A stretch of DNA of 24,102 nucleotides from Leptospirales bacterium (GTDB taxonomy: Bacteria > Spirochaetota > Leptospiria > Turneriellales > JAOUFE01). Location of the stretch: positions 4,457 through 28,558 of the forward strand of contig JBEQLE010000059.1 of assembly GCA_040326155.1 (NCBI GenBank). The letters are read 5' to 3'. Positions 973 through 18,802 of the stretch are shown here, in pieces (position 1 is the stretch's first letter; every line of letters begins with the position of its first letter). The translations under genes and the position numbers were made by a program. A model generated the notes under the pieces. It had not been told where the DNA came from. It saw only the letters and a list, made by a program, of their open reading frames with translations, and ran no database searches.

Positions 973-1644
973 TTACCAGTAATCCCACGGGTTGAAGCGC
1001 TCCAGGCGGAAGTCCTTGTGTTTAGGAGCCTCGGTGGGTAAAACAACACCCGCGTATAATTTAATGCCCAGCCAATAGAACGCTGCTTCATGAAAAGCCG
1101 AATGGCTTCGAGCCTGGTTCTGCAATCGAACATTACCCCTGGTACGAAACGGAAACCATACCAGCTTAGCCGAAGGAAGCCGCGATCGCGGGCGCAATGG
1201 CTGAACCCCTGACGGCAACGGCCCGGACTTCCCGAAACAAATCATTTCCAGTTTATCTAAATTCGATTCGAGGGCCAGGCGCACCAGATGAGTCATTGTG
1301 CAATACATCAAACCCGCAGTCATTCTAATGAAGAATTCATCTTCGCCATATAAGCAAAGCTTATGGCGGTGCATTTCTTCGACCCCCAGATGTTCTTTTG
1401 CGAGCGCCTGCAACTTCTTGAATTTTGGTTTTTCCCAGAAACGCTGGCAATAGCCGATATTTTTTCGTGCATCGGTCCGCTTGATCAGACGAAACAGACA
1501 ATATCGTACCACCCACGAATAAGTCTTATCTTTATGCAATGCGATGCGGACGATTCTCTTCCAGATTTCGCTTTTCAATCGAACTTCCAGAATATTGTCA
1601 GGTTGGATAGGCAGTTGTTCATACGGCGTATTATTGTTGATCAT
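973..1644 (-). CDS. Tandem ribbon-helix-helix-like protein, paralogue 1 (possibly DUF1564-like); alternative start at 1680
   Basis: Two strand-helix-helix patterns: LEVRLKSEIWKRIVRIALHKDKTYSWVVRYCL and HKLCLYGEDEFFIRMTAGLMYCTMTHLVRLAL. Clear paralogy to 4984..5544 supports that it is coding. Confidence 0.65.
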   Translation of the reverse strand: MINNNTPYEQLPIQPDNILEVRLKSEIWKRIVRIALHKDKTYSWVVRYCLFRLIKRTDARKNIGYCQRFWEKPKFKKLQALAKEHLGVEEMHRHKLCLYGEDEFFIRMTAGLMYCTMTHLVRLALESNLDKLEMICFGKSGPLPSGVQPLRPRSRLPSAKLVWFPFRTRGNVRLQNQARSHSAFHEAAFYWLGIKLYAGVVLPTEAPKHKDFRLERFNPWDYW

Positions 1645-1651
1645 ACCAGTG

Positions 1652-1680
1652 TAATAGGCAAAAGTGCTGTTTTTTTTCAT
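1652..1680 (-). promoter_or_regulatory. Putative sigma28-like promoter, ATGAAA-N15-GCCTATTA, 7 nt before the ATG at 1644
   Basis: Resembles the sigma28 consensus TAAA-N15-GCCGATAA. The same motif and spacing recur at 4948..4976 (+) and 23658..23686 (-). Confidence 0.45.
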
Positions 1681-1921: not shown

Positions 1922-2737
1922 TTATGGAATAAAATTACCGGTTGGGCCGGACCCTTCCATATACAAATTGTTTAAATACTGAGTGAGATAATCGTAAGCT
2001 TCATCAACGGTATCGGCGAAAAAAACAAACTCCATGTCGGACTCATCGATTACTCCCCATTCAACAAAAGCGTCGAAGTTGATGAGACTATTCCAGTACT
2101 CCTTGCCGTAAAATACGATGGGCATGGGCTTGTTCAACTTGTGAGTTTGCTTGAGAGTTAGCAGTTCGAAAATTTCATCAACGGTGCCAAAGCCACCAGG
2201 AAAAACAGCGAGAGCTTTTGCCAGGTAGGTGAACCAGTATTTGCGCATAAAAAAATAGTTAAAATCGAAAGAGAGCGAGTGGGTTATATAGCGATTCGGA
2301 GACTGTTCAAAGGGCAACGCAATGTTTAAACCGATCGAAGTGCCGCGAGCCAGGTAGGCTCCACGGTTTGCCGCTTCCATAATTCCCGGACCGCCGCCTG
2401 AAGCGATTAAAAAACGGGGGGACCCTTTCGGAAGACTTTTGGACCATTCTGTCATCCGGTAAGCAAGTTGGGTGGCTTCCACGTAATAGTTGGCCAACTT
2501 TTTCATCTTGTCCAGCCGTTTGGTCTCCACTTCGGTAAGATCTTTCTTTTCGGCCTCGGCTAAAACTTTTCGCATTTCACGTGGGGACTTTGCCCTCGCT
2601 GAACCGAAAAATACTAACGCATCGGTAATTTTCTTTTGCTCAAATACTTGAAGTGGGTGAAAATATTCCGATAATATCCTGATGGAACGTGCCTCGGAAG
2701 ACTCTAAAAATTCTTTATCAAAATACGATTTATCCAT
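1922..2737 (-). CDS. LOG-family (TIGR00730-like) nucleotide phosphoribohydrolase; alternative start at 2758
   Basis: Signature motifs VFFGSAR, SGGGPGIMEAANRGA, SIGLNIALPFEQ, YFFMRK and PGGFGTVDE. Confidence 0.93.
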   Translation of the reverse strand: MDKSYFDKEFLESSEARSIRILSEYFHPLQVFEQKKITDALVFFGSARAKSPREMRKVLAEAEKKDLTEVETKRLDKMKKLANYYVEATQLAYRMTEWSKSLPKGSPRFLIASGGGPGIMEAANRGAYLARGTSIGLNIALPFEQSPNRYITHSLSFDFNYFFMRKYWFTYLAKALAVFPGGFGTVDEIFELLTLKQTHKLNKPMPIVFYGKEYWNSLINFDAFVEWGVIDESDMEFVFFADTVDEAYDYLTQYLNNLYMEGSGPTGNFIP

Positions 2738-3305
2738 GGGGCTTCTACGTTTTTTCATTCTATTGACTATTTTTATCGTCCCCCTTTATCGGCAACAACA
2801 AATTTATTCTGCCGTAAGACAGGTCCACTGGAATATATCCGATCATCAATGGGAAAAACGCAAGTTGAGAAACCACGGTCCCTACCTGGTCGAGGGAAAA
2901 GGGGGAATGCAGGTTTTAATTGGCGAGAGCGAGATCTATGTACGAAACTCCCTTGGCGAACCCACCCGGCGCAGCTATGGAAAAAATGACGTGTTGTATT
3001 ACCAGCGAAGAACCTACCGGGGTGAAATCTGGCTACGCAAAGGATTCGTCGTGCGAATTATTTTCTACGCACAAAAACACATTTCACAATCGTTTCACTG
3101 GAGAACCGCAATGGGACTGCGCCAGTTGATGGTACAAGATAAGTCCCAAGAAGAGGCCGTGGACTTTATTTTAGAATTTTACGAGCAACCGCGTCACCTG
3201 GTAAAAACGAACACCCTAAACATACACTCGCGGGGAATTTTGTTTCAATGGGAAGGCGATATTCTGCGAAAAGTCGAAATATTCGAACCCTGGGATTATT
3301 ATTAG
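2736..3305 (+). CDS. Hypothetical protein with an N-terminal signal or anchor sequence
   Basis: 189-aa ORF from MGLLRFFILLTIFIVPL fills the gap between the LOG gene and mazG. No family recognised. Confidence 0.6.
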   Translation: MGLLRFFILLTIFIVPLYRQQQIYSAVRQVHWNISDHQWEKRKLRNHGPYLVEGKGGMQVLIGESEIYVRNSLGEPTRRSYGKNDVLYYQRRTYRGEIWLRKGFVVRIIFYAQKHISQSFHWRTAMGLRQLMVQDKSQEEAVDFILEFYEQPRHLVKTNTLNIHSRGILFQWEGDILRKVEIFEPWDYY

Positions 3306-4859: not shown

Positions 4860-4893
4860 TTATGCTCCTTAAATGTTATCACTGAATTATGCT

Positions 4894-4922
4894 ATTGTTC
4901 AGGCATTTAGGCATTATGTCAA
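4894..4922 (-). promoter_or_regulatory. Putative sigma70 promoter of the lipoprotein gene
   Basis: TTGACA-N17-AACAAT on the minus strand, about 35 nt upstream of the ATG at 4859. Confidence 0.4.
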
Positions 4923-4947
4923 TAAAAATGGAAAAAACAGACAAAAA

Positions 4948-4976
4948 ATGAAAAAATTCCCAACTTTTTCCTATTA
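4948..4976 (+). promoter_or_regulatory. Putative sigma28-like promoter, ATGAAA-N15-TCCTATTA, 7 nt before the ATG at 4984
   Basis: 4948..4986 matches 1680..1642 (-) at 31 of 39 nt, including third codon positions. Confidence 0.45.
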
Positions 4977-4983
4977 CACTTAT

Positions 4984-5544
4984 ATGAAGAATGTAACTAC
5001 GTATCGAAAACTGAAGATTCCCATTGACAATGTTTTAGAAATTCGGCTGCCTCCTTTGTCCTGGAATAAAGTAAAATGGGTGGCAATCTGTACATTCAGA
5101 ACCCATTCCTGGGTTGTCCGATATGCTGTTTTTCGGATGATTAAACGAAACGGGCAATTTCATCCGGATGGCGAAAATGCGGGGTTGCGCTCTGCTAAAA
5201 TTGCAAAGTTAAATGATCTGGTGCGAGGCGAACGAGCCAATAGTCAAAAGAAACATAGACATCGACTTTGTTTATACGGCAAGGATGAGTTGTTTATTCG
5301 AATTGCTGCTGCGAAAATGGGATGTACGATGTCTCATCTAGTTCGTCTGGCGCTGGCGATGTATCTGGATGATTTGGTGAGCAAGTTTTATATTGGGCGC
5401 TCCCGGGGCCGTAATGGCAGGTTCAGTGGTCCGGCGTGGAAGTGCCTGGGGATTAAGATTTACCGTGGTGTGAGATTCCACACCACGGTTATAAGACACC
5501 AGCATTTCGAGTTCATCTACTACAAACCCGGCGATTACTGGTAA
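4984..5544 (+). CDS. Tandem ribbon-helix-helix-like protein, paralogue 2; alternative start at 4948
   Basis: Shares DN(V/I)LE(I/V)RL, SWVVRY, H(R/K)LCLYG.DE.FIR, CTM.HLVRLAL, LGIK.Y.GV and the terminal P.DYW with 973..1644. Confidence 0.65.
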   Translation: MKNVTTYRKLKIPIDNVLEIRLPPLSWNKVKWVAICTFRTHSWVVRYAVFRMIKRNGQFHPDGENAGLRSAKIAKLNDLVRGERANSQKKHRHRLCLYGKDELFIRIAAAKMGCTMSHLVRLALAMYLDDLVSKFYIGRSRGRNGRFSGPAWKCLGIKIYRGVRFHTTVIRHQHFEFIYYKPGDYW

Positions 5545-11092: not shown

Positions 11093-14000
11093 ATGGAATA
11101 TTTAAAGTATGTAAGCCGGATAACGGCATTTGTTTTAGTTGTTTTGCCGGGGGCAATATTTGGGGCGGTGAATTCAAACGGTTCATTCTCTCATAGTGTA
11201 AAAATTGAGATACCGGAAGGAAGAAATAAAATGCACCCTTCTGTGAGTTTAGTGTATAATTCTAATGGCAGTAATGGACTGGCTGGTATTGGGTGGTCGA
11301 TTAGTGGCATACCCGCCATCAGTCGTCAAGTGGGAAATAACGGCTTACAGTATCACGGTAATGGAACGTATTTTGGAATTCAAGGTGAACTTGTCGATGT
11401 TTCTGGGGACCAAACCGTTTTTCACAGCAAAGAAGAATCTTATTATAAATATGAACCAATATATGGAACTTGTGGATTAGAACCAAAGGAACCATGTGGA
11501 TGGAAAGTAACAGCTCCAAATGGATATATTATGTATTTTGGTCAAGATGTAGACGGTAAGACCGGGAATTCCAGTATACTGGCAGATAACGGACTTGGAT
11601 ATATAAAATGGGGAATGAGAATGGTCGTTGACTTACATGGTAACGCCGTTGTCTATGAATATGATAACTCAGACGGTTTACTTCTTCCTGAAAGAATCTT
11701 ATACACAATCGGCCAGAGCACATCACGACTTCGTTCCGTTACTTTTCAGTACGAACCTCGAAACGATATAGAAAATCGATTTTTAAGTGGTGCTTACCAA
11801 ACCATGTCTAAGAGATTGAAGTCAGTTCAAGTCTCGAGTAATGTATATTGTGTTTTGGGATTTTGTACAAGTGGCGATTTAATACGTAAATATAATATTC
11901 ATTATAACTACAGCTCTTCTACAGGCAGAAGTGCTGTAACAAGAATTCAAGAGACAGGAAAAGATGGTGTTACATTAAAGCCCGCTCAAGATTTTATATG
12001 GTCTCACTCTACTGTGGATATTTCTGAAGCGAACACAAGAAACCTGGCCGGTGAATACTCTAATTCTAAAGCTTCAGATATAAACGGTGATGGGTTGACA
12101 GATTTTATACGCTATCATGATACAGGAACTCAGACAAATATTGCGTATAGTATAACAAGTACAAATGGCTCAGAAAATCAGTCCGAGAATTTTGCTTTTA
12201 GTTTAACTGGCTGGGAACTTAAGATTGCAGACATGAATGGGGACGGCAAAGGCGACCTTATTTTCGCAAAAGGAACTTCAGTTAAATATGCTTTATGGAA
12301 TGATATTTCGTGGGGAACCCTGGTTGACGCTCGTGTTGGAGATGAAAACGCCGTCGGATGGCAAATAAACGCAAGCGATTTAAACAAAGATGGTTTAACT
12401 GATCTGTTATATTATTACAATTATTATCCGGATCATGAAACGGCTTGCACGACATGCCAAAATAAAACTTCTATCCAGGTTCAAAAAAATACAGGGCAGG
12501 GTTTTGAAACTGCGCTGACTGTTTTTGATGATGCAACCCTTAATGCACAATGGAATTTTAGTGTTGTAAACTTAAACGAAGATTATGACGCCGACATAGT
12601 TTTATTTAATATGATAGATGGTATAAATGTAAAATATCTGCTCAGCCAAAACGGAGGTTTTGCGCCAATTGCGCAAGCATACCAGGTTTCGGACCCGGAT
12701 AATTATTGGCAGGTAATTCCGGCTGATTATAATGGGGATGGCAAGACAGACCTTATCTATATGAAACAAGATTATAATCCTGATACTAAAGACAATCAAA
12801 TTACATTTGGATTGCAAATAGACAATGGAGCAGGGTTTAATAGTTTTAACGAGATTAAAATTTTAGCAAAAAACGGATATTATACGCTATATCCTTTAGA
12901 TATTAACTCAGACCGGCGAGCCGATTTGTTAATAAAGGACAATAAAGACGACAAATGTGATATCGACTATACTTTATTAGAAAATCGTGCAAGTGGATTT
13001 ACTCCCGAACAAAACTATAAAATCCAAGAAAGCCTGGGAGGTGATTGTAGTTTATCTATAAAATTAGGTGAGTTTAATGGAGATGGGACAATTGATATTA
13101 TTCACACTGTATCTGATGGAACAAATGAAGTAAAGATGTTATCTGGTGCAGGTACACAGGCAATTGCAAGTGATAAAATATTTGAAATTAGAAATAATAT
13201 TGGTAGCATACAAAAAGTTTACTATGAAACATTGGTAGAGCATGCCGGGGCTATTGATTTGCAAACGAATCAATGTGGCGGCGCAAGTGGTGTCGGTTAT
13301 TTCGCACCATGTGGTATAGCGTATAAGAATCCAGGATTTTTGGTGAACAAGATCTCGGTTTCCGATGGCCGGGAAAATGAATTTTTCGTCAGTTTTCTTT
13401 ATTTCAACCAGCGGTTTAAACCGGGCAGGGGAAGTCAGGGTAAAGCTTTGGGATTTCAAACCTTTACTACAATTGATGAATTCGTAGGTAGTTATAATGT
13501 AAAAAATTTCCGACAAGATTCAAGTTATGCAAAAATGTTCGATTATGAAGAAGAGTATAATGCGAACAATCAATTAATGAGTCGTAAGTCATTTATTTAT
13601 TCACAAGATCATTCTACTATTTTCCAGGGTACTGAAAAAACGATCATGGAAAAAGAAGTATTTAAATTGTATGAAGCAGGACAATTTTCTTTAAGCAATA
13701 CAAAAGTATACAACTACAACGATTATGGGCAGGCTGTTTCCGCTATCGATATTGCTACAGGGACAGAAACAGTAGAGTTCGAATATAAATATGAAATGGA
13801 TCTAAATTTATGGATTCTTGATCGTAAAATTGAAGAAAAGCAAATAGTACAGGGTACCGTTTTAAAATGGGATAAATTTACTTATGCAAACCACAACATG
13901 GTTTTAGAAGAACGGTATTTGAATACAACTGATTCATTTTTGTCGACAACATTTGGTTATGACGAATATGGGAATATAATTCAAAAAACAGATACAAATG

Positions 14001-17000
14001 GCAATTCTACAAGTGTTAAATATGACACTGAATATTTTACACTACCTTTCCAGGAAGTCAATGCTCTGGGGCACACCATTACTTATGAATATGATCCATT
14101 GTATATTGCGCCTTTGTCTTTAACGGATAATAATGGAAATGTTACGACAAGTGAATATGACAGCTTTTATCGACTTGTAAAGTTAATCTATCCTGGCGGT
14201 CAGTATTCTAAAGCGGTCGATTATATGCCAAATGAAGGAAATCCAAATGAACAATATATTGAAGTTCGATATACAGATAGTTCACCGGAAGGTTTTAGTT
14301 ATGTGCGTCACTATTATGACGGACTTACCAGAATTTACAATAAAGCTGCCAAGGGCGTAATCTTAGAAGAAAATGGAAATATTGTACATCGTGACGTTGT
14401 CACTGAATACGAGTTTTTTGGTCGGGGTAACGAAGATTATAATAAGATTTCTTTCCCTTACGTTCAAGGGCTTCAGGAACCGGCTTATAAAACATTCCAG
14501 TATGACTCTTATGGAAGAATGACAAAAATCGTAAGTCCGAACGGGACCTCTTCGCGTATAGTTTACAAAAACAACGAATTGGAACAATACGATGCGAACA
14601 ATAATATGGGTCGGGTAGTTGTTGATGCACGGGGCAGGGATATAGTTCGAGAAAACTATAAAGGATCCACTTTACTTTCCAGTATAGAGTATACATATCA
14701 GTCTTTAAAGCAAATTACAAAAGAAGCTGATGGGCATATTTCTACGGTTACATATGATACCCTGGAACGGACGAATAAAATTGAAGATGATACGACCGGA
14801 ATATGGAGATTTAAGCAAGATGCCAATGGTAATTTAATTGAGCAAATGGACCCGATGGGTCAAAAAACATACAAGCAGTATGACGCTTTAAATCGCATGG
14901 TACGTAAATCGTATAGCGGCAATTCTCACGACGACGACGATGATGATGAATCTGATTCAGATGATGAACATGAAGACCATGCGGACGACGACGACGATGA
15001 TCACTTTGCATTTACCAATAACACAATTTTCGGCAACCCTCATTTTGGACGTAACAAATCTACATATTATGTGTATGATGATGTTACTCAAGCCAACTCC
15101 ATTGGTAAATTAAGTCATGTATATGACGCCTCCGGAAAAACAAGTTACAGTTATGACGTACGCGGCAATTTGAATAACATGATAAAAGAAATTGGTACTC
15201 AACAATTTGCTTTTTCAGCCAAATACAATGGAGAAAAAAAAGTAACTCAGGTTACTTATCCAGATGGTTCCACTATAGGAAATATCTATAGCAATGCAGG
15301 TTATTTACGCCAGGTTCGTTGGTATGATGCAAAAGAGCAAGGTGATGGACACCCTGTCGTAACTTATGCTGGTCCAGATAAGGACTATAAATTGGTACGA
15401 ATCTTAGGAAACGGCGGTAAAGATATTATCACTTACAATCCGCTGACTTTAAAACCGGATAGTGTTCAAACCATATTAAAAGATACAGATGGAGAGAACA
15501 TTGTCGTGCGTGATATTGACTACGAAATGGACGGCAACGGTAACATGTTATCGATTAAAGATAATTTGAACCTTGAGTCTTCGCAGTTCTTTCAGTACGA
15601 TGGTTTGGATCGTGTTGTTGGCGCACAAGGCGCATACGGAATAAAGAACTACCAGTATTCACCAGGTGGCAATTTATTAGTTAAAGGTCAGAAACAACTT
15701 TTCTATGAAGATAAACTTCATCCACAAAGTGTTACTTCTGATAGTCTGGGCAATGCGTACAATTATGATGAAAATGGAAGTCTGGTAAAACATAATGATC
15801 GTATTTTTAAATACAACAAAGATCGCCAGATGGTTCAAGTTAATCGGAAAAAAGAAGGTAAAATTGCCGAGTTTATTTATGGCCATAACGAAAACCGGGC
15901 AGTGAAAAAAACAAAAAACGGTAGCTTAATTTACTATTTTCACTTTTTATCGAATACAGAGCCATTATTTGAAATTCAAGTTTTTGATAAAGGTCACAAG
16001 AAAAAAAGCCACGGTAATGGTAATGGTAACGGTTATGACCAGGAAGACGAGTATGAGAAGCCGGGTATAATGCATACCAACTATGTATATGGAATGTATA
16101 ATGAATTGGTCGCTCAGGTGACAAAAAGTTCAACGAGCTTATTAGCTTTAAGTAAAACTTCCGATGCAGTGGCTGTCGAAATGGTAAATGCAAATGGCCC
16201 GGTCGGTTGGACTCAAAAAGCATTCATGATTTCGGCGATATGGTTTACTGACATTGGGAATATAAAAAATTCGGTGTTGGCATTTTTCTTTTTAGCGATT
16301 ACCATGTTTTACATTGTTTTTACTTACCAGTCCATAGCAAAACGAGCTGCCCGTCAATTGGGTCTAGCTAGAAAAATATACTATTTCAGTACGCCGATTA
16401 TTTTTACTGCCTTTTTCTGGTTTTATGGAGCCGGCTGCGGCGTCATCAATGAGGCAGGCGCTACAGATGCAGAATATTGGGAAACGATACCGTCCCATAT
16501 TCCGGAGGATATCAGCGATGTCAGCGAGCCTTCCGGGAATTCGGAAGTGGCTGAGCATGGAGGTTTTCCTGTGCTGGGTGCATACTTTTTTCATCCCGAT
16601 CATCTTGGCAGCGTTCGATTTGTCAGTGATGCCAGTGGTAGTTTGTTGACGCATATAAACTATACTCCCTATGGTGAAATCGACCGGGAGCAATCTGCCG
16701 GTCCCGATATTTTACGCCACAAATACACCCACCAGGAGGAAGATCGGGAAACCGGACTCTACAATTACAATGCCAGAATGTATGACTCAAATTCTGGAAG
16801 ATTTACGAGCGCCGACACGGAACTTCCTGGAGAAGGGAAAATGTCTCAAGGATTTAACAGGTATATGTATGCTATGGGCAATCCGGTAAAATATAGCGAC
16901 CCAACCGGGCATTGCTTTGCAGCGGGAGATACTGACGTTGGCGGTTCTTGTTCAACCGTTCCTGGTCATAACTATACTGGACCTACGAAAAGACAGGCCA

Positions 17001-17560
17001 ATAGTATGGGGACTTGCGTCTCGGCTATTGATTGTATCTCTCGCGGCCATGATAATGCAAATGCTGCTCTTTTTCCGGGTTTAAATCCTGGAAAACCGCT
17101 GGGCCAGGGTACTGGGGCTAACATATCAATGTTAATGAATAATATAACGGCTGATGTATTGTGGATTGTGGGGGGAGCGTTGGCAATCACACCACTTGGT
17201 TTTGTTTATGATGTTGTCGCCGGGGCAAATTGGTTTAGTGAAAATACACCTCAACCGGCTTCTGGGGATATCGTAGGTTGGATTGCTTATGGTATTGCGG
17301 GGGTTCTTGTTACAGCTGTATATGCTATTGCCGCTTTTGTATACGATACAGTCATTTTTGCCCTGGGACGGGTACTGTTTGCAATCAATATAGCTTTCTC
17401 AGCCGTTCTACTGGCTATGAATGTTATAGTCGGTTTTATCGACGGTATAGGTAAATTCTTTACGGACCCGCTAGCAACAATCAATGCCTTTGTTGATGAA
17501 GTGGACGATTTCTTTACCGGTATTGGTGACGCCATAGAAGACTTTTTCACTGGCTGGTGA
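11093..17560 (+). CDS. Secreted SpvB/FG-GAP/YD-repeat Rhs protein (fused TcB-TcC-like) with PLA2-like C-terminal cargo
   Basis: Sec-like signal, then SpvB-like NGSFSHSVKIEIPEG...SLVYNS...GIGWS. Multiple D.NGDG..D FG-GAP repeats and YD repeats. Rhs core motifs HPDHLGS, YTPYGE, YTHQEEDRETGLYNYNARMYD and NRYMYAMGNPVKYSDPTG. GAGG RBS upstream. Confidence 0.93.
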   Translation: MEYLKYVSRITAFVLVVLPGAIFGAVNSNGSFSHSVKIEIPEGRNKMHPSVSLVYNSNGSNGLAGIGWSISGIPAISRQVGNNGLQYHGNGTYFGIQGELVDVSGDQTVFHSKEESYYKYEPIYGTCGLEPKEPCGWKVTAPNGYIMYFGQDVDGKTGNSSILADNGLGYIKWGMRMVVDLHGNAVVYEYDNSDGLLLPERILYTIGQSTSRLRSVTFQYEPRNDIENRFLSGAYQTMSKRLKSVQVSSNVYCVLGFCTSGDLIRKYNIHYNYSSSTGRSAVTRIQETGKDGVTLKPAQDFIWSHSTVDISEANTRNLAGEYSNSKASDINGDGLTDFIRYHDTGTQTNIAYSITSTNGSENQSENFAFSLTGWELKIADMNGDGKGDLIFAKGTSVKYALWNDISWGTLVDARVGDENAVGWQINASDLNKDGLTDLLYYYNYYPDHETACTTCQNKTSIQVQKNTGQGFETALTVFDDATLNAQWNFSVVNLNEDYDADIVLFNMIDGINVKYLLSQNGGFAPIAQAYQVSDPDNYWQVIPADYNGDGKTDLIYMKQDYNPDTKDNQITFGLQIDNGAGFNSFNEIKILAKNGYYTLYPLDINSDRRADLLIKDNKDDKCDIDYTLLENRASGFTPEQNYKIQESLGGDCSLSIKLGEFNGDGTIDIIHTVSDGTNEVKMLSGAGTQAIASDKIFEIRNNIGSIQKVYYETLVEHAGAIDLQTNQCGGASGVGYFAPCGIAYKNPGFLVNKISVSDGRENEFFVSFLYFNQRFKPGRGSQGKALGFQTFTTIDEFVGSYNVKNFRQDSSYAKMFDYEEEYNANNQLMSRKSFIYSQDHSTIFQGTEKTIMEKEVFKLYEAGQFSLSNTKVYNYNDYGQAVSAIDIATGTETVEFEYKYEMDLNLWILDRKIEEKQIVQGTVLKWDKFTYANHNMVLEERYLNTTDSFLSTTFGYDEYGNIIQKTDTNGNSTSVKYDTEYFTLPFQEVNALGHTITYEYDPLYIAPLSLTDNNGNVTTSEYDSFYRLVKLIYPGGQYSKAVDYMPNEGNPNEQYIEVRYTDSSPEGFSYVRHYYDGLTRIYNKAAKGVILEENGNIVHRDVVTEYEFFGRGNEDYNKISFPYVQGLQEPAYKTFQYDSYGRMTKIVSPNGTSSRIVYKNNELEQYDANNNMGRVVVDARGRDIVRENYKGSTLLSSIEYTYQSLKQITKEADGHISTVTYDTLERTNKIEDDTTGIWRFKQDANGNLIEQMDPMGQKTYKQYDALNRMVRKSYSGNSHDDDDDDESDSDDEHEDHADDDDDDHFAFTNNTIFGNPHFGRNKSTYYVYDDVTQANSIGKLSHVYDASGKTSYSYDVRGNLNNMIKEIGTQQFAFSAKYNGEKKVTQVTYPDGSTIGNIYSNAGYLRQVRWYDAKEQGDGHPVVTYAGPDKDYKLVRILGNGGKDIITYNPLTLKPDSVQTILKDTDGENIVVRDIDYEMDGNGNMLSIKDNLNLESSQFFQYDGLDRVVGAQGAYGIKNYQYSPGGNLLVKGQKQLFYEDKLHPQSVTSDSLGNAYNYDENGSLVKHNDRIFKYNKDRQMVQVNRKKEGKIAEFIYGHNENRAVKKTKNGSLIYYFHFLSNTEPLFEIQVFDKGHKKKSHGNGNGNGYDQEDEYEKPGIMHTNYVYGMYNELVAQVTKSSTSLLALSKTSDAVAVEMVNANGPVGWTQKAFMISAIWFTDIGNIKNSVLAFFFLAITMFYIVFTYQSIAKRAARQLGLARKIYYFSTPIIFTAFFWFYGAGCGVINEAGATDAEYWETIPSHIPEDISDVSEPSGNSEVAEHGGFPVLGAYFFHPDHLGSVRFVSDASGSLLTHINYTPYGEIDREQSAGPDILRHKYTHQEEDRETGLYNYNARMYDSNSGRFTSADTELPGEGKMSQGFNRYMYAMGNPVKYSDPTGHCFAAGDTDVGGSCSTVPGHNYTGPTKRQANSMGTCVSAIDCISRGHDNANAALFPGLNPGKPLGQGTGANISMLMNNITADVLWIVGGALAITPLGFVYDVVAGANWFSENTPQPASGDIVGWIAYGIAGVLVTAVYAIAAFVYDTVIFALGRVLFAINIAFSAVLLAMNVIVGFIDGIGKFFTDPLATINAFVDEVDDFFTGIGDAIEDFFTGW

Positions 17561-17583
17561 GAATCAGCGTTTATAATCGGTCT

Positions 17584-17679
17584 ATGGTAAAAAGATATAA
17601 AGTCTTATTAGCACTTTTCTCTTTCATGGTTCCCCTCTTTATGGCAACGGCTGTAGAGAAGGGGACCCATGAGCATTAG
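17584..17679 (+). CDS. Possible 31-aa hydrophobic peptide (MVKRYKVLLALFSFMVPLFMATAVEKGTHEH)
   Basis: Small ORF between the Rhs and radical SAM genes. No clear RBS, and it overlaps a hairpin, so it may be spurious. Confidence 0.2.
   Translation: MVKRYKVLLALFSFMVPLFMATAVEKGTHEH
17624..17672 (+). other. Long RNA hairpin between the Rhs and radical SAM genes
   Basis: TCATGGTTCCCCTCTTTATGGC-AACG-GCTGTAGAGAAGGGGACCCATGA forms about 21 pairs including G-U. No immediate U-tract. Confidence 0.6.
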
Positions 17680-17719: not shown

Positions 17720-18802
17720 ATGAAGTATGATTTACAATTTAAAGAACATCTGGAAGATCTTTACTTAAACAAAGCAAATTCTAATGCGTCTAATGTTTTT
17801 CTTGAGTTTGAATTAACCGGAAAATGTAGAAATAAATGTTTTTTTTGTGGTAACTTTTCGCAATCTCATGGTCCAGAGCTCAATTTTAAACAGTTAAAAA
17901 AGTTTATAAAAAAATTTTCTACTTATTATTTGCGTAAAGGAAAGCGGCCTATACTCTCTTTCTGCGGGGGGGACCCGGCGCTATATTCTTATTTTGACGA
18001 GCTGCTTTTATTTCTCGACAGATCGAAATTACCGTTTGTTATAAAAGGGAATCCTTCTACCATTGATGAAGACCATGTTTATCTACTGCAAAATCATGGC
18101 TGCATGGCTGTCAAGTTTACCTATCTCGGAGATAAAAAACTTCATAATGAAACACGGGGAAACGAGACGGTAGCAGATTTAATAGAAAAGACAAAGATGT
18201 TTCAATCTATGGAAATGCCGGTGTTGTGGAATTTGAGTGTTGGTAAATTTAACATGAATTCTATTGTAGAGTCGTTACCTTTTATACATGAAGCTCGACC
18301 GGACGCAATTATGATTGGGCGTCTGGCTAATATTGGAAAAATAAAGGATACAAAAGAGGAAAATCAAAACAACGAAATGACGGCTCCGGAATTTAAGAAA
18401 TTCTTAATGACGCTGTTAAATTATTACTATAAGAACTATGAAAATGGTTTTCATCTATCGTTTAAAGAAAAGTTATGGGTTCCACTACTTGCCGAGATGG
18501 GACTTCTGGACATAGAAAAATTAGATATTCCCCCCGAACACCTGGGCTGCGACGCTTACTGCCGTTCTTTTAATGTAAATAGCAGCGGAGATATCTCTTT
18601 ATGTGGGCTTTTATCTACAGATCAGCCTGCTGCGCTCAGCGAATTTGACATTGAAAAGGTATTAAAATTACGAACCCTTTCGATGAAAAACAATTCTTAT
18701 TGTCATGATTGCAAATACGGCCCGTACTGCCAGGGATGTCGCGCGATAGCATTGGCCAACACCGGGGATGTTTATGCAAAAGATCCTCATTGCTGGTTAT
18801 AG
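17720..18802 (+). CDS. Radical SAM protein with SPASM domain
   Basis: CRNKCFFC (CxxxCxxC) and GGDP. SPASM cysteines GC...GDISLC...CHDCKYGPYCQGCRAIA...GD...DPHCW. Confidence 0.92.
   Translation: MKYDLQFKEHLEDLYLNKANSNASNVFLEFELTGKCRNKCFFCGNFSQSHGPELNFKQLKKFIKKFSTYYLRKGKRPILSFCGGDPALYSYFDELLLFLDRSKLPFVIKGNPSTIDEDHVYLLQNHGCMAVKFTYLGDKKLHNETRGNETVADLIEKTKMFQSMEMPVLWNLSVGKFNMNSIVESLPFIHEARPDAIMIGRLANIGKIKDTKEENQNNEMTAPEFKKFLMTLLNYYYKNYENGFHLSFKEKLWVPLLAEMGLLDIEKLDIPPEHLGCDAYCRSFNVNSSGDISLCGLLSTDQPAALSEFDIEKVLKLRTLSMKNNSYCHDCKYGPYCQGCRAIALANTGDVYAKDPHCWL

Follow-up and report, generated by a model that had tools for sequence, protein, structure and literature searches.

A conserved transmembrane hairpin and lipobox-like cysteine between shell and core of a spirochaetal TcB/TcC-type Rhs protein

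The locus and its pre-core insert

The window considered here is a stretch of 24,102 nucleotides (nt) from a Leptospirales bacterium (GenBank assembly GCA_040326155.1, contig JBEQLE010000059.1, positions 4,457 to 28,558 of the forward strand), and its largest open reading frame (ORF), at 11093-17560, encodes an Rhs polymorphic-toxin protein of the TcB/TcC type. Between the shell and the core of this protein lies an insert that holds two hydrophobic segments (TM1 and TM2, for transmembrane), a basic loop between them and, directly after TM2, a cysteine, Cys1782, that is retained in nearly all homologous inserts and has the surroundings of a lipoprotein processing site. The gene and the parts of the insert are as follows (window coordinates, with residues of the protein in parentheses).

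11093..17560, + strand: whole gene, TcB/TcC-type Rhs polymorphic-toxin protein of 2155 amino acids (aa), P0001, from the ORF list, translation, Pfam and NCBIfam
16082-16120, + strand: last shell strand, YVYGMYNELVAQV (residues 1664-1676)
16121..16582, + strand: pre-core insert of 154 aa between the last shell strand and the core (residues 1677-1830)
16271-16327, + strand: TM1, SVLAFFFLAITMFYIVFTY, proposed stop-transfer anchor (residues 1727-1745), Kyte-Doolittle 19-mer maximum 2.09
16328-16375, + strand: basic loop, QSIAKRAARQLGLARK, net charge +5, proposed cytoplasmic n-region (residues 1746-1761)
16376-16435, + strand: TM2, weakly hydrophobic, signal-peptide-like h-region (residues 1762-1781)
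16436..16438, + strand: Cys1782 (codon TGC), lipobox-like and invariant in the alignments of homologues
16439-16582, + strand: acidic linker after Cys1782 (residues 1783-1830)
16583-16612, + strand: start of the core, YFFHPDHLGS (residues 1831-1840)

Within the loop, the basic stretch KRAARQLGLARK occupies residues 1750-1761. TM2 has a conserved (S/T/A)-P near its start and G-A-G at its end, and the 48-residue linker, with 10 Asp or Glu and no Lys or Arg, contains a conserved W/P motif (residues 1790-1809, nt 16460-16519) and an invariant Gly directly before the core. A preliminary description of this locus, made from the sequence alone, had placed about 150 aa where a short linker is normally found and had read in them the order TM1, basic loop, TM2 and Cys. 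All of its coordinates proved correct when the ORF translation was re-checked, the order is real and conserved in homologues, and the 154 aa compare with approximately 7 residues at the equivalent gap in insert-free Rhs paralogues of the same genome. Across the same aligned landmarks, teneurin-2 has approximately 41 residues versus 213 here, in sequence matches to solved structures that reached only the core and one upstream repeat.

The insert interrupts a protein whose domains run in the order SpvB, FG-GAP propeller, RHS shell, Rhs core and variable C terminus, with Pfam matches to RHS_repeat (PF05593; E value of 3e-28), FG-GAP_3 (PF13517; 1.8e-17), FG-GAP (PF01839; 2.4e-12) and SpvB (PF03534; 3e-14) and NCBIfam matches to TIGR03696 (Rhs_assc_core; residues 1857-1940, E value of 3.7e-19, 69 bits against a cut-off of 32.5) and TIGR01643 (YD repeat).

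11093..11170, + strand: putative N-terminal Sec-type signal peptide without Cys (approximately residues 1-26; hydrophobic segment 6-29, Kyte-Doolittle value 1.95), MEYLKYVSRITAFVLVVLPGAIFGAV
11174..11677, + strand: SpvB domain (residues 28-195), by PF03534
12050..13192, + strand: FG-GAP/VCBS beta-propeller, limits approximate (about residues 320-700), by FG-GAP_3 and FG-GAP
13715..16120, + strand: RHS/YD-repeat shell up to and including the last shell strand, start approximate (about residues 875-1676), by RHS_repeat and YD_repeat_2x matches and the AlphaFold2 model
16583..16912, + strand: Rhs-associated core (residues 1831-1940), ending in DPTGH, by TIGR03696
16913..17557, + strand: variable C-terminal (toxin) domain of 215 aa with several hydrophobic helices

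The N-terminal signal holds no lipobox Cys, its cleavage site is putative, and N-terminal hydrophobic segments are likewise found in homologues. In the propeller, the best FG-GAP_3 and FG-GAP stretches are residues 494-555 and 539-555, with D-x-N-x-D-G motifs at residues 329, 380, 429, 545 and 603. Asp1908 (nt 16814-16816) and Asp1936 (nt 16898-16900), the latter within the DPTGH motif (residues 1936-1940), correspond to D579 and D607 of alignment A1 and are invariant across its 34 sequences; we take them to be the aspartyl-protease pair of the Tc and Rhs proteins, and a Tse15 cleavage mutant, D1369N/D1391N, is on record. A Pfam scan of the 215-aa C-terminal domain returned no family; its hydrophobic segments fall within residues 2020-2124, and the C termini of homologues are polymorphic, mostly hydrophobic or rich in Gly and Ala, with HExxH in some. 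Within the shell, the protein also contains an almost pure run of 26 Asp, Glu and His residues (residues 1279-1304, nt 14927-15004, + strand; HDDDDDDESDSDDEHEDHADDDDDDH), where a sister paralogue has just a short acidic patch.

Conservation of the insert and of Cys1782

A word-indexed search with residues 1560-1950 as the query returned 95 proteins, 21 of which have a hydrophobic segment no more than 220 residues upstream of the core; these come from spirochaete metagenome-assembled genomes and from named Leptospira species. A core-like motif without such an upstream segment was located in 39 proteins, and the remaining 35, in which the core motif pattern was not matched, were left out of the insert count. 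The Cys following TM2 is present in all 21 homologues, and its column is the only Cys column common to all 21 full-length proteins. The other Cys columns are clade-specific and paired, and Cys1782 therefore lacks a universal disulfide partner.

At the level of genomes, the insert was found in 27 of the 401 genomes of the phylum (own genome included), among them 23 of the 75 genomes of one family, in which three genera contribute 13/19, 10/20 and 0/30, and 3 further genomes from two other families. Removing duplicates and insert-free loci left 52 distinct inserts (33 genomic and 19 from database proteins) from Leptospira species and related spirochaetes, and 51 of these have a Cys directly after TM2 (48 found by filter and 3 confirmed by eye). 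The exception is a paralogue on the - strand of contig C125 in the same genome (locus L006), in which TM2 ends in ISLHAQG. This end, as ISLHA|QG, resembles a signal peptidase I site, and the linker from there to the core is much shorter, at only about 17 residues.

Conservation is concentrated at few positions. In the insert alignment (A2), just two columns, the Cys and the Gly that precedes the core, show no variation at all, with a mean column identity of 31%; by column number, G87, W91, P108, G119 and P121 are nearly invariant and G124 is invariant. Insert identity between clades is just 15-25%, and the part before TM1 is poorly conserved. A profile of the insert alone (from A2), run against 1.84 billion representatives, matched 56 clusters (50% identity) at an E value of ≤0.001. 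Among the new matches, 52 of 53 span the Cys position and every one of those 52 has the Cys, the remaining one starting after that position. Named members recovered in this way are Leptospira weilii, L. alexanderi and L. barantonii, and the module spans two Leptospiraceae genera as well as other spirochaete families. The preliminary description had proposed to look for the Cys in homologous Rhs proteins, and it is there, in 51/52 inserts and 52/52 covering profile representatives; because hairpin and Cys recur to this extent, the insert is, by comparison of sequences, more than a product of chance.

These counts bear on the possibility that the insert is neutral or decaying sequence whose likeness to a lipobox is accidental. 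The site does accept other material: two Rhs paralogues (contigs C7 and C47) carry a low-complexity insert of about 170 residues, rich in Lys, Gly, Asn and Thr, at the same pre-core position, so the shell/core junction tolerates different insertions, and the weak conservation before TM1 is what a neutral insertion would show. A module conserved at 15-25% insert identity, in at least 56 clusters at 50% identity and across two Leptospiraceae genera and other families, is not, and conservation strongly disfavours this explanation, which we regard as very improbable.

Three side observations concern individual members of the family. (i) A conserved Cys pair, C-K-x-[IV]-x-x-D-C-x-x-Y-[YFW]-K-N, recurs in many Leptospira members some 25-40 residues before TM1, a pattern that fits a disulfide in an extracytoplasmic segment. 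(ii) A hairpin-bearing Rhs gene in another genome (locus L026, genome G092) has a frameshift inside TM1 and a second break upstream; the overlap of a 98-aa ORF with its stop codon is an arrangement frequent among immunity genes. (iii) Among the short profile matches, no clean case of a split gene starting exactly at the n-region of TM2 was found; the candidates, among them P0106, P0110, P0136 and P0137, look like orphan cassettes or truncated gene calls that start at or before TM1, L026 is frameshifted, and all were rejected as natural split genes.

Resemblance to a lipoprotein signal

In the 51 Cys-bearing inserts, residue -1 relative to the Cys is Gly in 24, Ser in 13, Asn in 11, and Ala, His and Asp in one each; it is thus Gly, Ser, Asn or Ala in 49 of them. 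Residue -3 is mostly Phe, Leu or Val (Phe, Leu, Val, Ile or Met in 36 of the 48 tabulated sequences), the residue after the Cys is mostly Gly or Ser, and a paralogue on contig C83 reads L-A-G-C. Passages of one account of spirochaetal lipoproteins report Asn, Ser and Cys at -1 of verified examples, an unusually flexible Leptospira lipobox, and atypical Leptospira Lgt and Lsp enzymes, including a divergent Lgt (PMC4758666). A crude scan of the genome itself (Lys/Arg, hydrophobic run, Cys) gave 270 N-terminal candidates with Ser (16%), Ala (15%), Gly (13%) and Asn (11%) at -1, a usage similar to that at the insert Cys sites. The genome also encodes LspA and Lgt-like proteins: LspA (TIGR00077) scores 109.5 bits, which exceeds its curated cut-off, and the three Lgt-like genes reach 41.6-85.3 bits, short of their cut-off of 118.9.

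The remainder of the hairpin is likewise arranged as in a signal peptide. The loop before TM2 has a net positive charge in 49/51 sequences; the 15-residue stretch that follows the Cys carries a net charge of zero or below, also in 49/51. The uncharged run before the Cys measures 12-24 residues and, in 12 Leptospira proteins, only 12-14, which by its length is too short for a stable TM helix. When insertion energies were summed over 19-residue windows on the biological hydrophobicity scale, TM1 scored as inserting (negative summed energy) in 43/51 sequences and the 19 residues before the Cys scored as noninserting (positive) in 51/51; TM1 is the more hydrophobic of the two in 50/51. Because of its short uncharged run and its noninserting scores next to an inserting TM1, TM2 resembles the h-region of a signal peptide rather than a stable anchor. 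The Cys lies at residue 1782 of 2155, behind TM1 and outside the first 15-35 or so residues expected of a lipoprotein precursor; the insert may therefore work like a classical lipoprotein signal but cannot be filed as one, since that signal is defined as N-terminal.

A comparison with the other Rhs proteins of the genome, which holds about 23 Rhs-core matches, points in the same direction. All three complete insert-free SpvB-Rhs paralogues (contigs C77, C117 and C147) have N-terminal lipoboxes (IFSNAC, LLFNNC and LFLNAC, respectively), and in all five complete paralogues that bear the hairpin the N-terminal signal is free of Cys. The three insert-free proteins, at 2370-2609 aa and with a lipobox of the spirochaete type, are themselves predicted giant lipoproteins. 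Beyond this genome, 18 of 20 further full-length insert-bearing representatives are without an N-terminal lipobox-like Cys, the other two having a Cys in the middle of the h-region; 5 of the first 21 homologues match a loose N-terminal lipobox pattern, with a Cys that lies inside the hydrophobic run and is not kept in close relatives. N-terminal lipoboxes are also present elsewhere, for example in P0045, P0047, P0049, P0057 and P0063, with LFVSSC, and in some insert-free Rhs proteins of other phyla. Because N-terminal and internal lipoboxes are complementary within the genome, lipid anchoring seems to be a recurrent theme of the SpvB-Rhs architecture, with the internal Cys as an alternative lipid site.

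The main rival to an internal lipoprotein signal is a plain anchor, that is, a permanent, uncleaved TM hairpin that holds a periplasmic cocoon in the inner membrane, the Cys being kept for some other reason (thioether lipidation without cleavage, another S-acylation, or packing at the helix end). Two hydrophobic helices around a basic loop, a TM1 that is a strong anchor in 43/51 sequences, and the survival of the hairpin without its Cys in one paralogue are all what such an anchor would produce, and a literature search, judged largely by titles, found no precedent for cleavage by signal peptidase II at an internal site. What the plain anchor leaves unexplained is an invariant unpaired Cys with small -1 residues (51/52), an h-region of 12-14 residues in 12 proteins, a TM2 that scores as noninserting in 51/51, and the N-terminal lipobox of the insert-free paralogues. 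We consider it a serious alternative, if on the whole a rather unlikely one.

Structure model and the absence of a known injector

An AlphaFold2 model of residues 1330-2155, built from the 34-sequence alignment, has a mean predicted local distance difference test (pLDDT) score of 64.9. Its shell portion (residues 1330-1680) is beta-strand with pLDDT values mostly of 82-93, the core is confident, and the C-terminal domain is all-helical with a pLDDT of about 30. The insert is predicted to form three helices, two of which, TM1 (model residues 395-420) and TM2 (model residues 427-450), do not belong to the beta shell. Comparison of model residues 1-609 by VIA-align retrieved Rhs, TcB-TcC and teneurin chains at Z scores of 20-29.5 over 385-425 aligned residues, and the modelled insert is without counterpart in these solved structures.

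Model residues 461-480, the 20 residues that begin 8 after the Cys, reach a pLDDT of about 87-90, like the folded parts. This bears on the suggestion in the preliminary description that processing could split off a free, lipid-anchored core-plus-toxin fragment, which now looks unlikely, since in all the solved relatives the core forms part of the shell as its plug (Z scores of 20-29.5). Because the core is the plug and the segment after the Cys is confidently placed, the more likely effect of lipidation at Cys1782 would be to tether the cocoon as a whole, anchoring it by its plug end.

A second alternative takes the hairpin out of the producer's membrane altogether: it would pack on or in the cocoon and later chaperone a hydrophobic toxin or insert into the target membrane, replacing a TcA or type VI secretion system (T6SS) translocator. 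Most C-terminal domains of the family are hydrophobic or rich in Gly and Ala, and Rhs cages are known to enclose toxin domains, with Tse5, RhsA and TcB-TcC among the structural matches. The T6SS sheath protein VipB/TssC was not found in the 94.66%-complete genome by a search whose control was positive in Escherichia coli, the Pfam scan of the window protein showed no PAAR domain, and the TcA families VRP1 and TcA_TcB_BD gave no match in the genome, the control genomes being likewise silent. The remark in the preliminary description that neither TcA nor T6SS is seen here is thus borne out for TssC, while for TcA it goes no further than a missing match in searches that were silent in controls too. 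With putative N-terminal Sec signals on these proteins, however, a strongly hydrophobic TM1 should be arrested in the Sec channel; a packed hairpin would leave unexplained two signals of membrane biogenesis, namely the basic loop and the lipobox-like Cys; and the low-complexity inserts of contigs C7 and C47 suggest that the site is an exposed loop, not interior. We judge a packed hairpin to be improbable.

Proposed mechanism

Our preferred reading, based on the features of the sequence given above, is that the insert combines a stop-transfer TM1 with an internal type II signal peptide that would lipidate, and probably cleave at, Cys1782; we put its probability at about 0.5. The anatomy of the insert, its conservation and its agreement with spirochaete lipoboxes are evident from the sequences; the topology, lipidation, cleavage and final location that we infer would arise as follows. 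(i) The N-terminal Sec signal would export SpvB, the propeller and the YD-shell into the periplasm. (ii) TM1 would stop translocation, leaving the +5 loop in the cytoplasm, and TM2 would restart export, now of the linker, the Rhs core and the toxin domain. (iii) Lgt would attach diacylglycerol to Cys1782, and LspA would probably cut at Gly1781|Cys1782. (iv) The core would plug the shell by folding into it, and the toxin would be freed inside by the pair of conserved Asp residues. The outcome would be a toxin-loaded Rhs cocoon with a lipid tether about 8 residues from its plug end and with its propeller/SpvB end facing away from the membrane; the cut shell chain would retain the TM1-TM2 hairpin as a second anchor unless this is trimmed.

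Several points weigh against an internal lipoprotein signal. The site of the window protein and its clade, W-F-Y-G-A-G-C, has Gly at -3 and Tyr at -4 instead of the canonical Leu at -3, and this Tyr falls outside what we take to be the PROSITE lipobox pattern. One paralogue (L006) keeps the hairpin without the Cys, and no internal signal peptidase II site or internal lipobox was met with in the title-based literature search. The positive-inside contrast is modest, as the 15-residue stretch ahead of TM1 is itself slightly positive (mean net charge of +1.25), and the hairpin has a pLDDT of only 45-66 in the model. Because the homologues are kin, the counts given above overstate their independence. 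Two further points concern the mechanism: translocation through the Sec channel might be arrested by the family's mostly hydrophobic toxin domains, and a shell chain that keeps a TM hairpin after cleavage is hard to reconcile with passage to the outer membrane, a point in favour of the inner membrane unless the hairpin is trimmed. Two other explanations, autoprocessing at the Cys of the HINT or intein type and a C-terminal sorting signal like MYXO-CTERM or PEP-CTERM, were discarded, since only about 45 residues separate the Cys from the core and no shared motif precedes TM1.

A more far-reaching proposal, speculative and in our estimation doubtful, is that the insert represents the first natural internal signal peptidase II site, at which one Sec-exported polypeptide would be divided in the envelope, giving three chains in all: a shell that retains the hairpin, a core bearing the lipid and a toxin released by self-cleavage. 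With the lipid at its plug end, a loaded cocoon could be displayed on a membrane surface with its gate facing outward, and spirochaetes, pathogenic Leptospira species among them, would deliver toxin on contact without TcA or T6SS.

Neighbouring genes

No recognisable immunity gene lies downstream of the Rhs gene, which is followed by a 40-aa ORF and then by a radical SAM gene. The 40-aa ORF (17557-17679, + strand) has one hydrophobic helix and a GTG start that overlaps the stop codon of the Rhs gene; it may encode a small immunity protein of the membrane, and no similar ORF was found after the sister Rhs gene. The radical SAM protein (17720-18802, + strand; PF04055, E value of 5.6e-10) has a Cys-rich C terminus. 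Its gene occurs in exactly two copies in the genome, 63% identical and each directly downstream of a sister Rhs gene (contigs C126 and C150; the sister copy is at C150:8879-9949, - strand); no copy was found in four Leptospira genomes with different C termini on their Rhs proteins. Its product may modify, or protect against, this Cys-containing toxin domain.

Elsewhere in the window, two paralogous ORFs, 973-1680 (- strand; 235 aa) and 4873-5544 (+ strand; 223 aa), share a block (HRHKLCLYGEDEFFIRM.../HRHRLCLYGKDELFIRI...) and end in WDYW/GDYW, and a third, 2682-3305, ends in PWDYY.

Implications and comparison with known systems

The module bears on the question of how stand-alone TcB/TcC-type Rhs proteins work without a TcA injector or a T6SS. 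It bears also on lipoprotein biogenesis, which is not known to act on other than N-terminal signals. A conserved n-h-lipobox module that lies inside the protein, precisely where shell and core meet, opens both questions to experiment. The hairpin and Cys, present in many Leptospira species that include named pathogens, may represent a novel means of fixing a toxin capsule to a membrane. If the Cys is lipidated, these large proteins would be redefined as membrane- or surface-anchored lipoproteins, with relevance to envelope biology and antigen discovery; if it is not, the family would still represent a previously undescribed membrane-hairpin insertion in the Rhs fold.

The insert and the protein that carries it can be set beside five kinds of known systems, as follows.

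(i) TcB-TcC cocoons and the TcdB/TcaC class. One account of this class gives it a signal peptide, SpvB, an integrin-like propeller and RHS, with spirochaetes among the hosts, and in the portion consulted mentions no hairpin/Cys module (PMC3482391). The window protein shares with the class SpvB, the FG-GAP propeller, the RHS shell, the core with its two conserved Asp residues and the variable C terminus, and its predicted shell aligns with TcdB2-TccC3 at a Z score of 25.9 over 423 residues and with the YenB/C complex at 27.1. It differs in the 154-aa TM-hairpin and Cys module before the core, which is absent from the solved structures.

(ii) Classical and spirochaetal lipoprotein signals. The likeness lies in a basic n-region, a short h-region, a small residue or Asn at -1, an invariant Cys and a tether that is acidic or rich in Gly and Ser. 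In contrast to these signals, the Cys of the window protein lies behind another TM helix, and processing there would split the protein in two instead of removing a short leader.

(iii) N-terminally lipidated SpvB-Rhs proteins. These have the same Rhs architecture and a lipobox Cys, but their lipid would sit at the SpvB end with no break in the chain, whereas here it would sit at the plug end.

(iv) SitA of the myxobacteria. Passages of the source describe lipobox-anchored polymorphic toxins that are delivered by outer-membrane exchange, without T6SS or TcA (PMC5562445). Unlike the window protein, SitA lacks an Rhs shell and is equipped with a conventional type II signal at its N terminus. We know of no TraAB-type exchange in spirochaetes.

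(v) Teneurins and T6SS Rhs effectors with N-terminal TM helices. These, too, are membrane-associated YD-shell proteins, and they match the predicted fold at Z scores of 20-29.5; their TM segments, however, are N-terminal and without a lipobox.

Set against these systems, and judged by its sequence, the window protein is best filed as a member of the fused TcB/TcC-type Rhs polymorphic-toxin family that carries a new conserved pre-core module.

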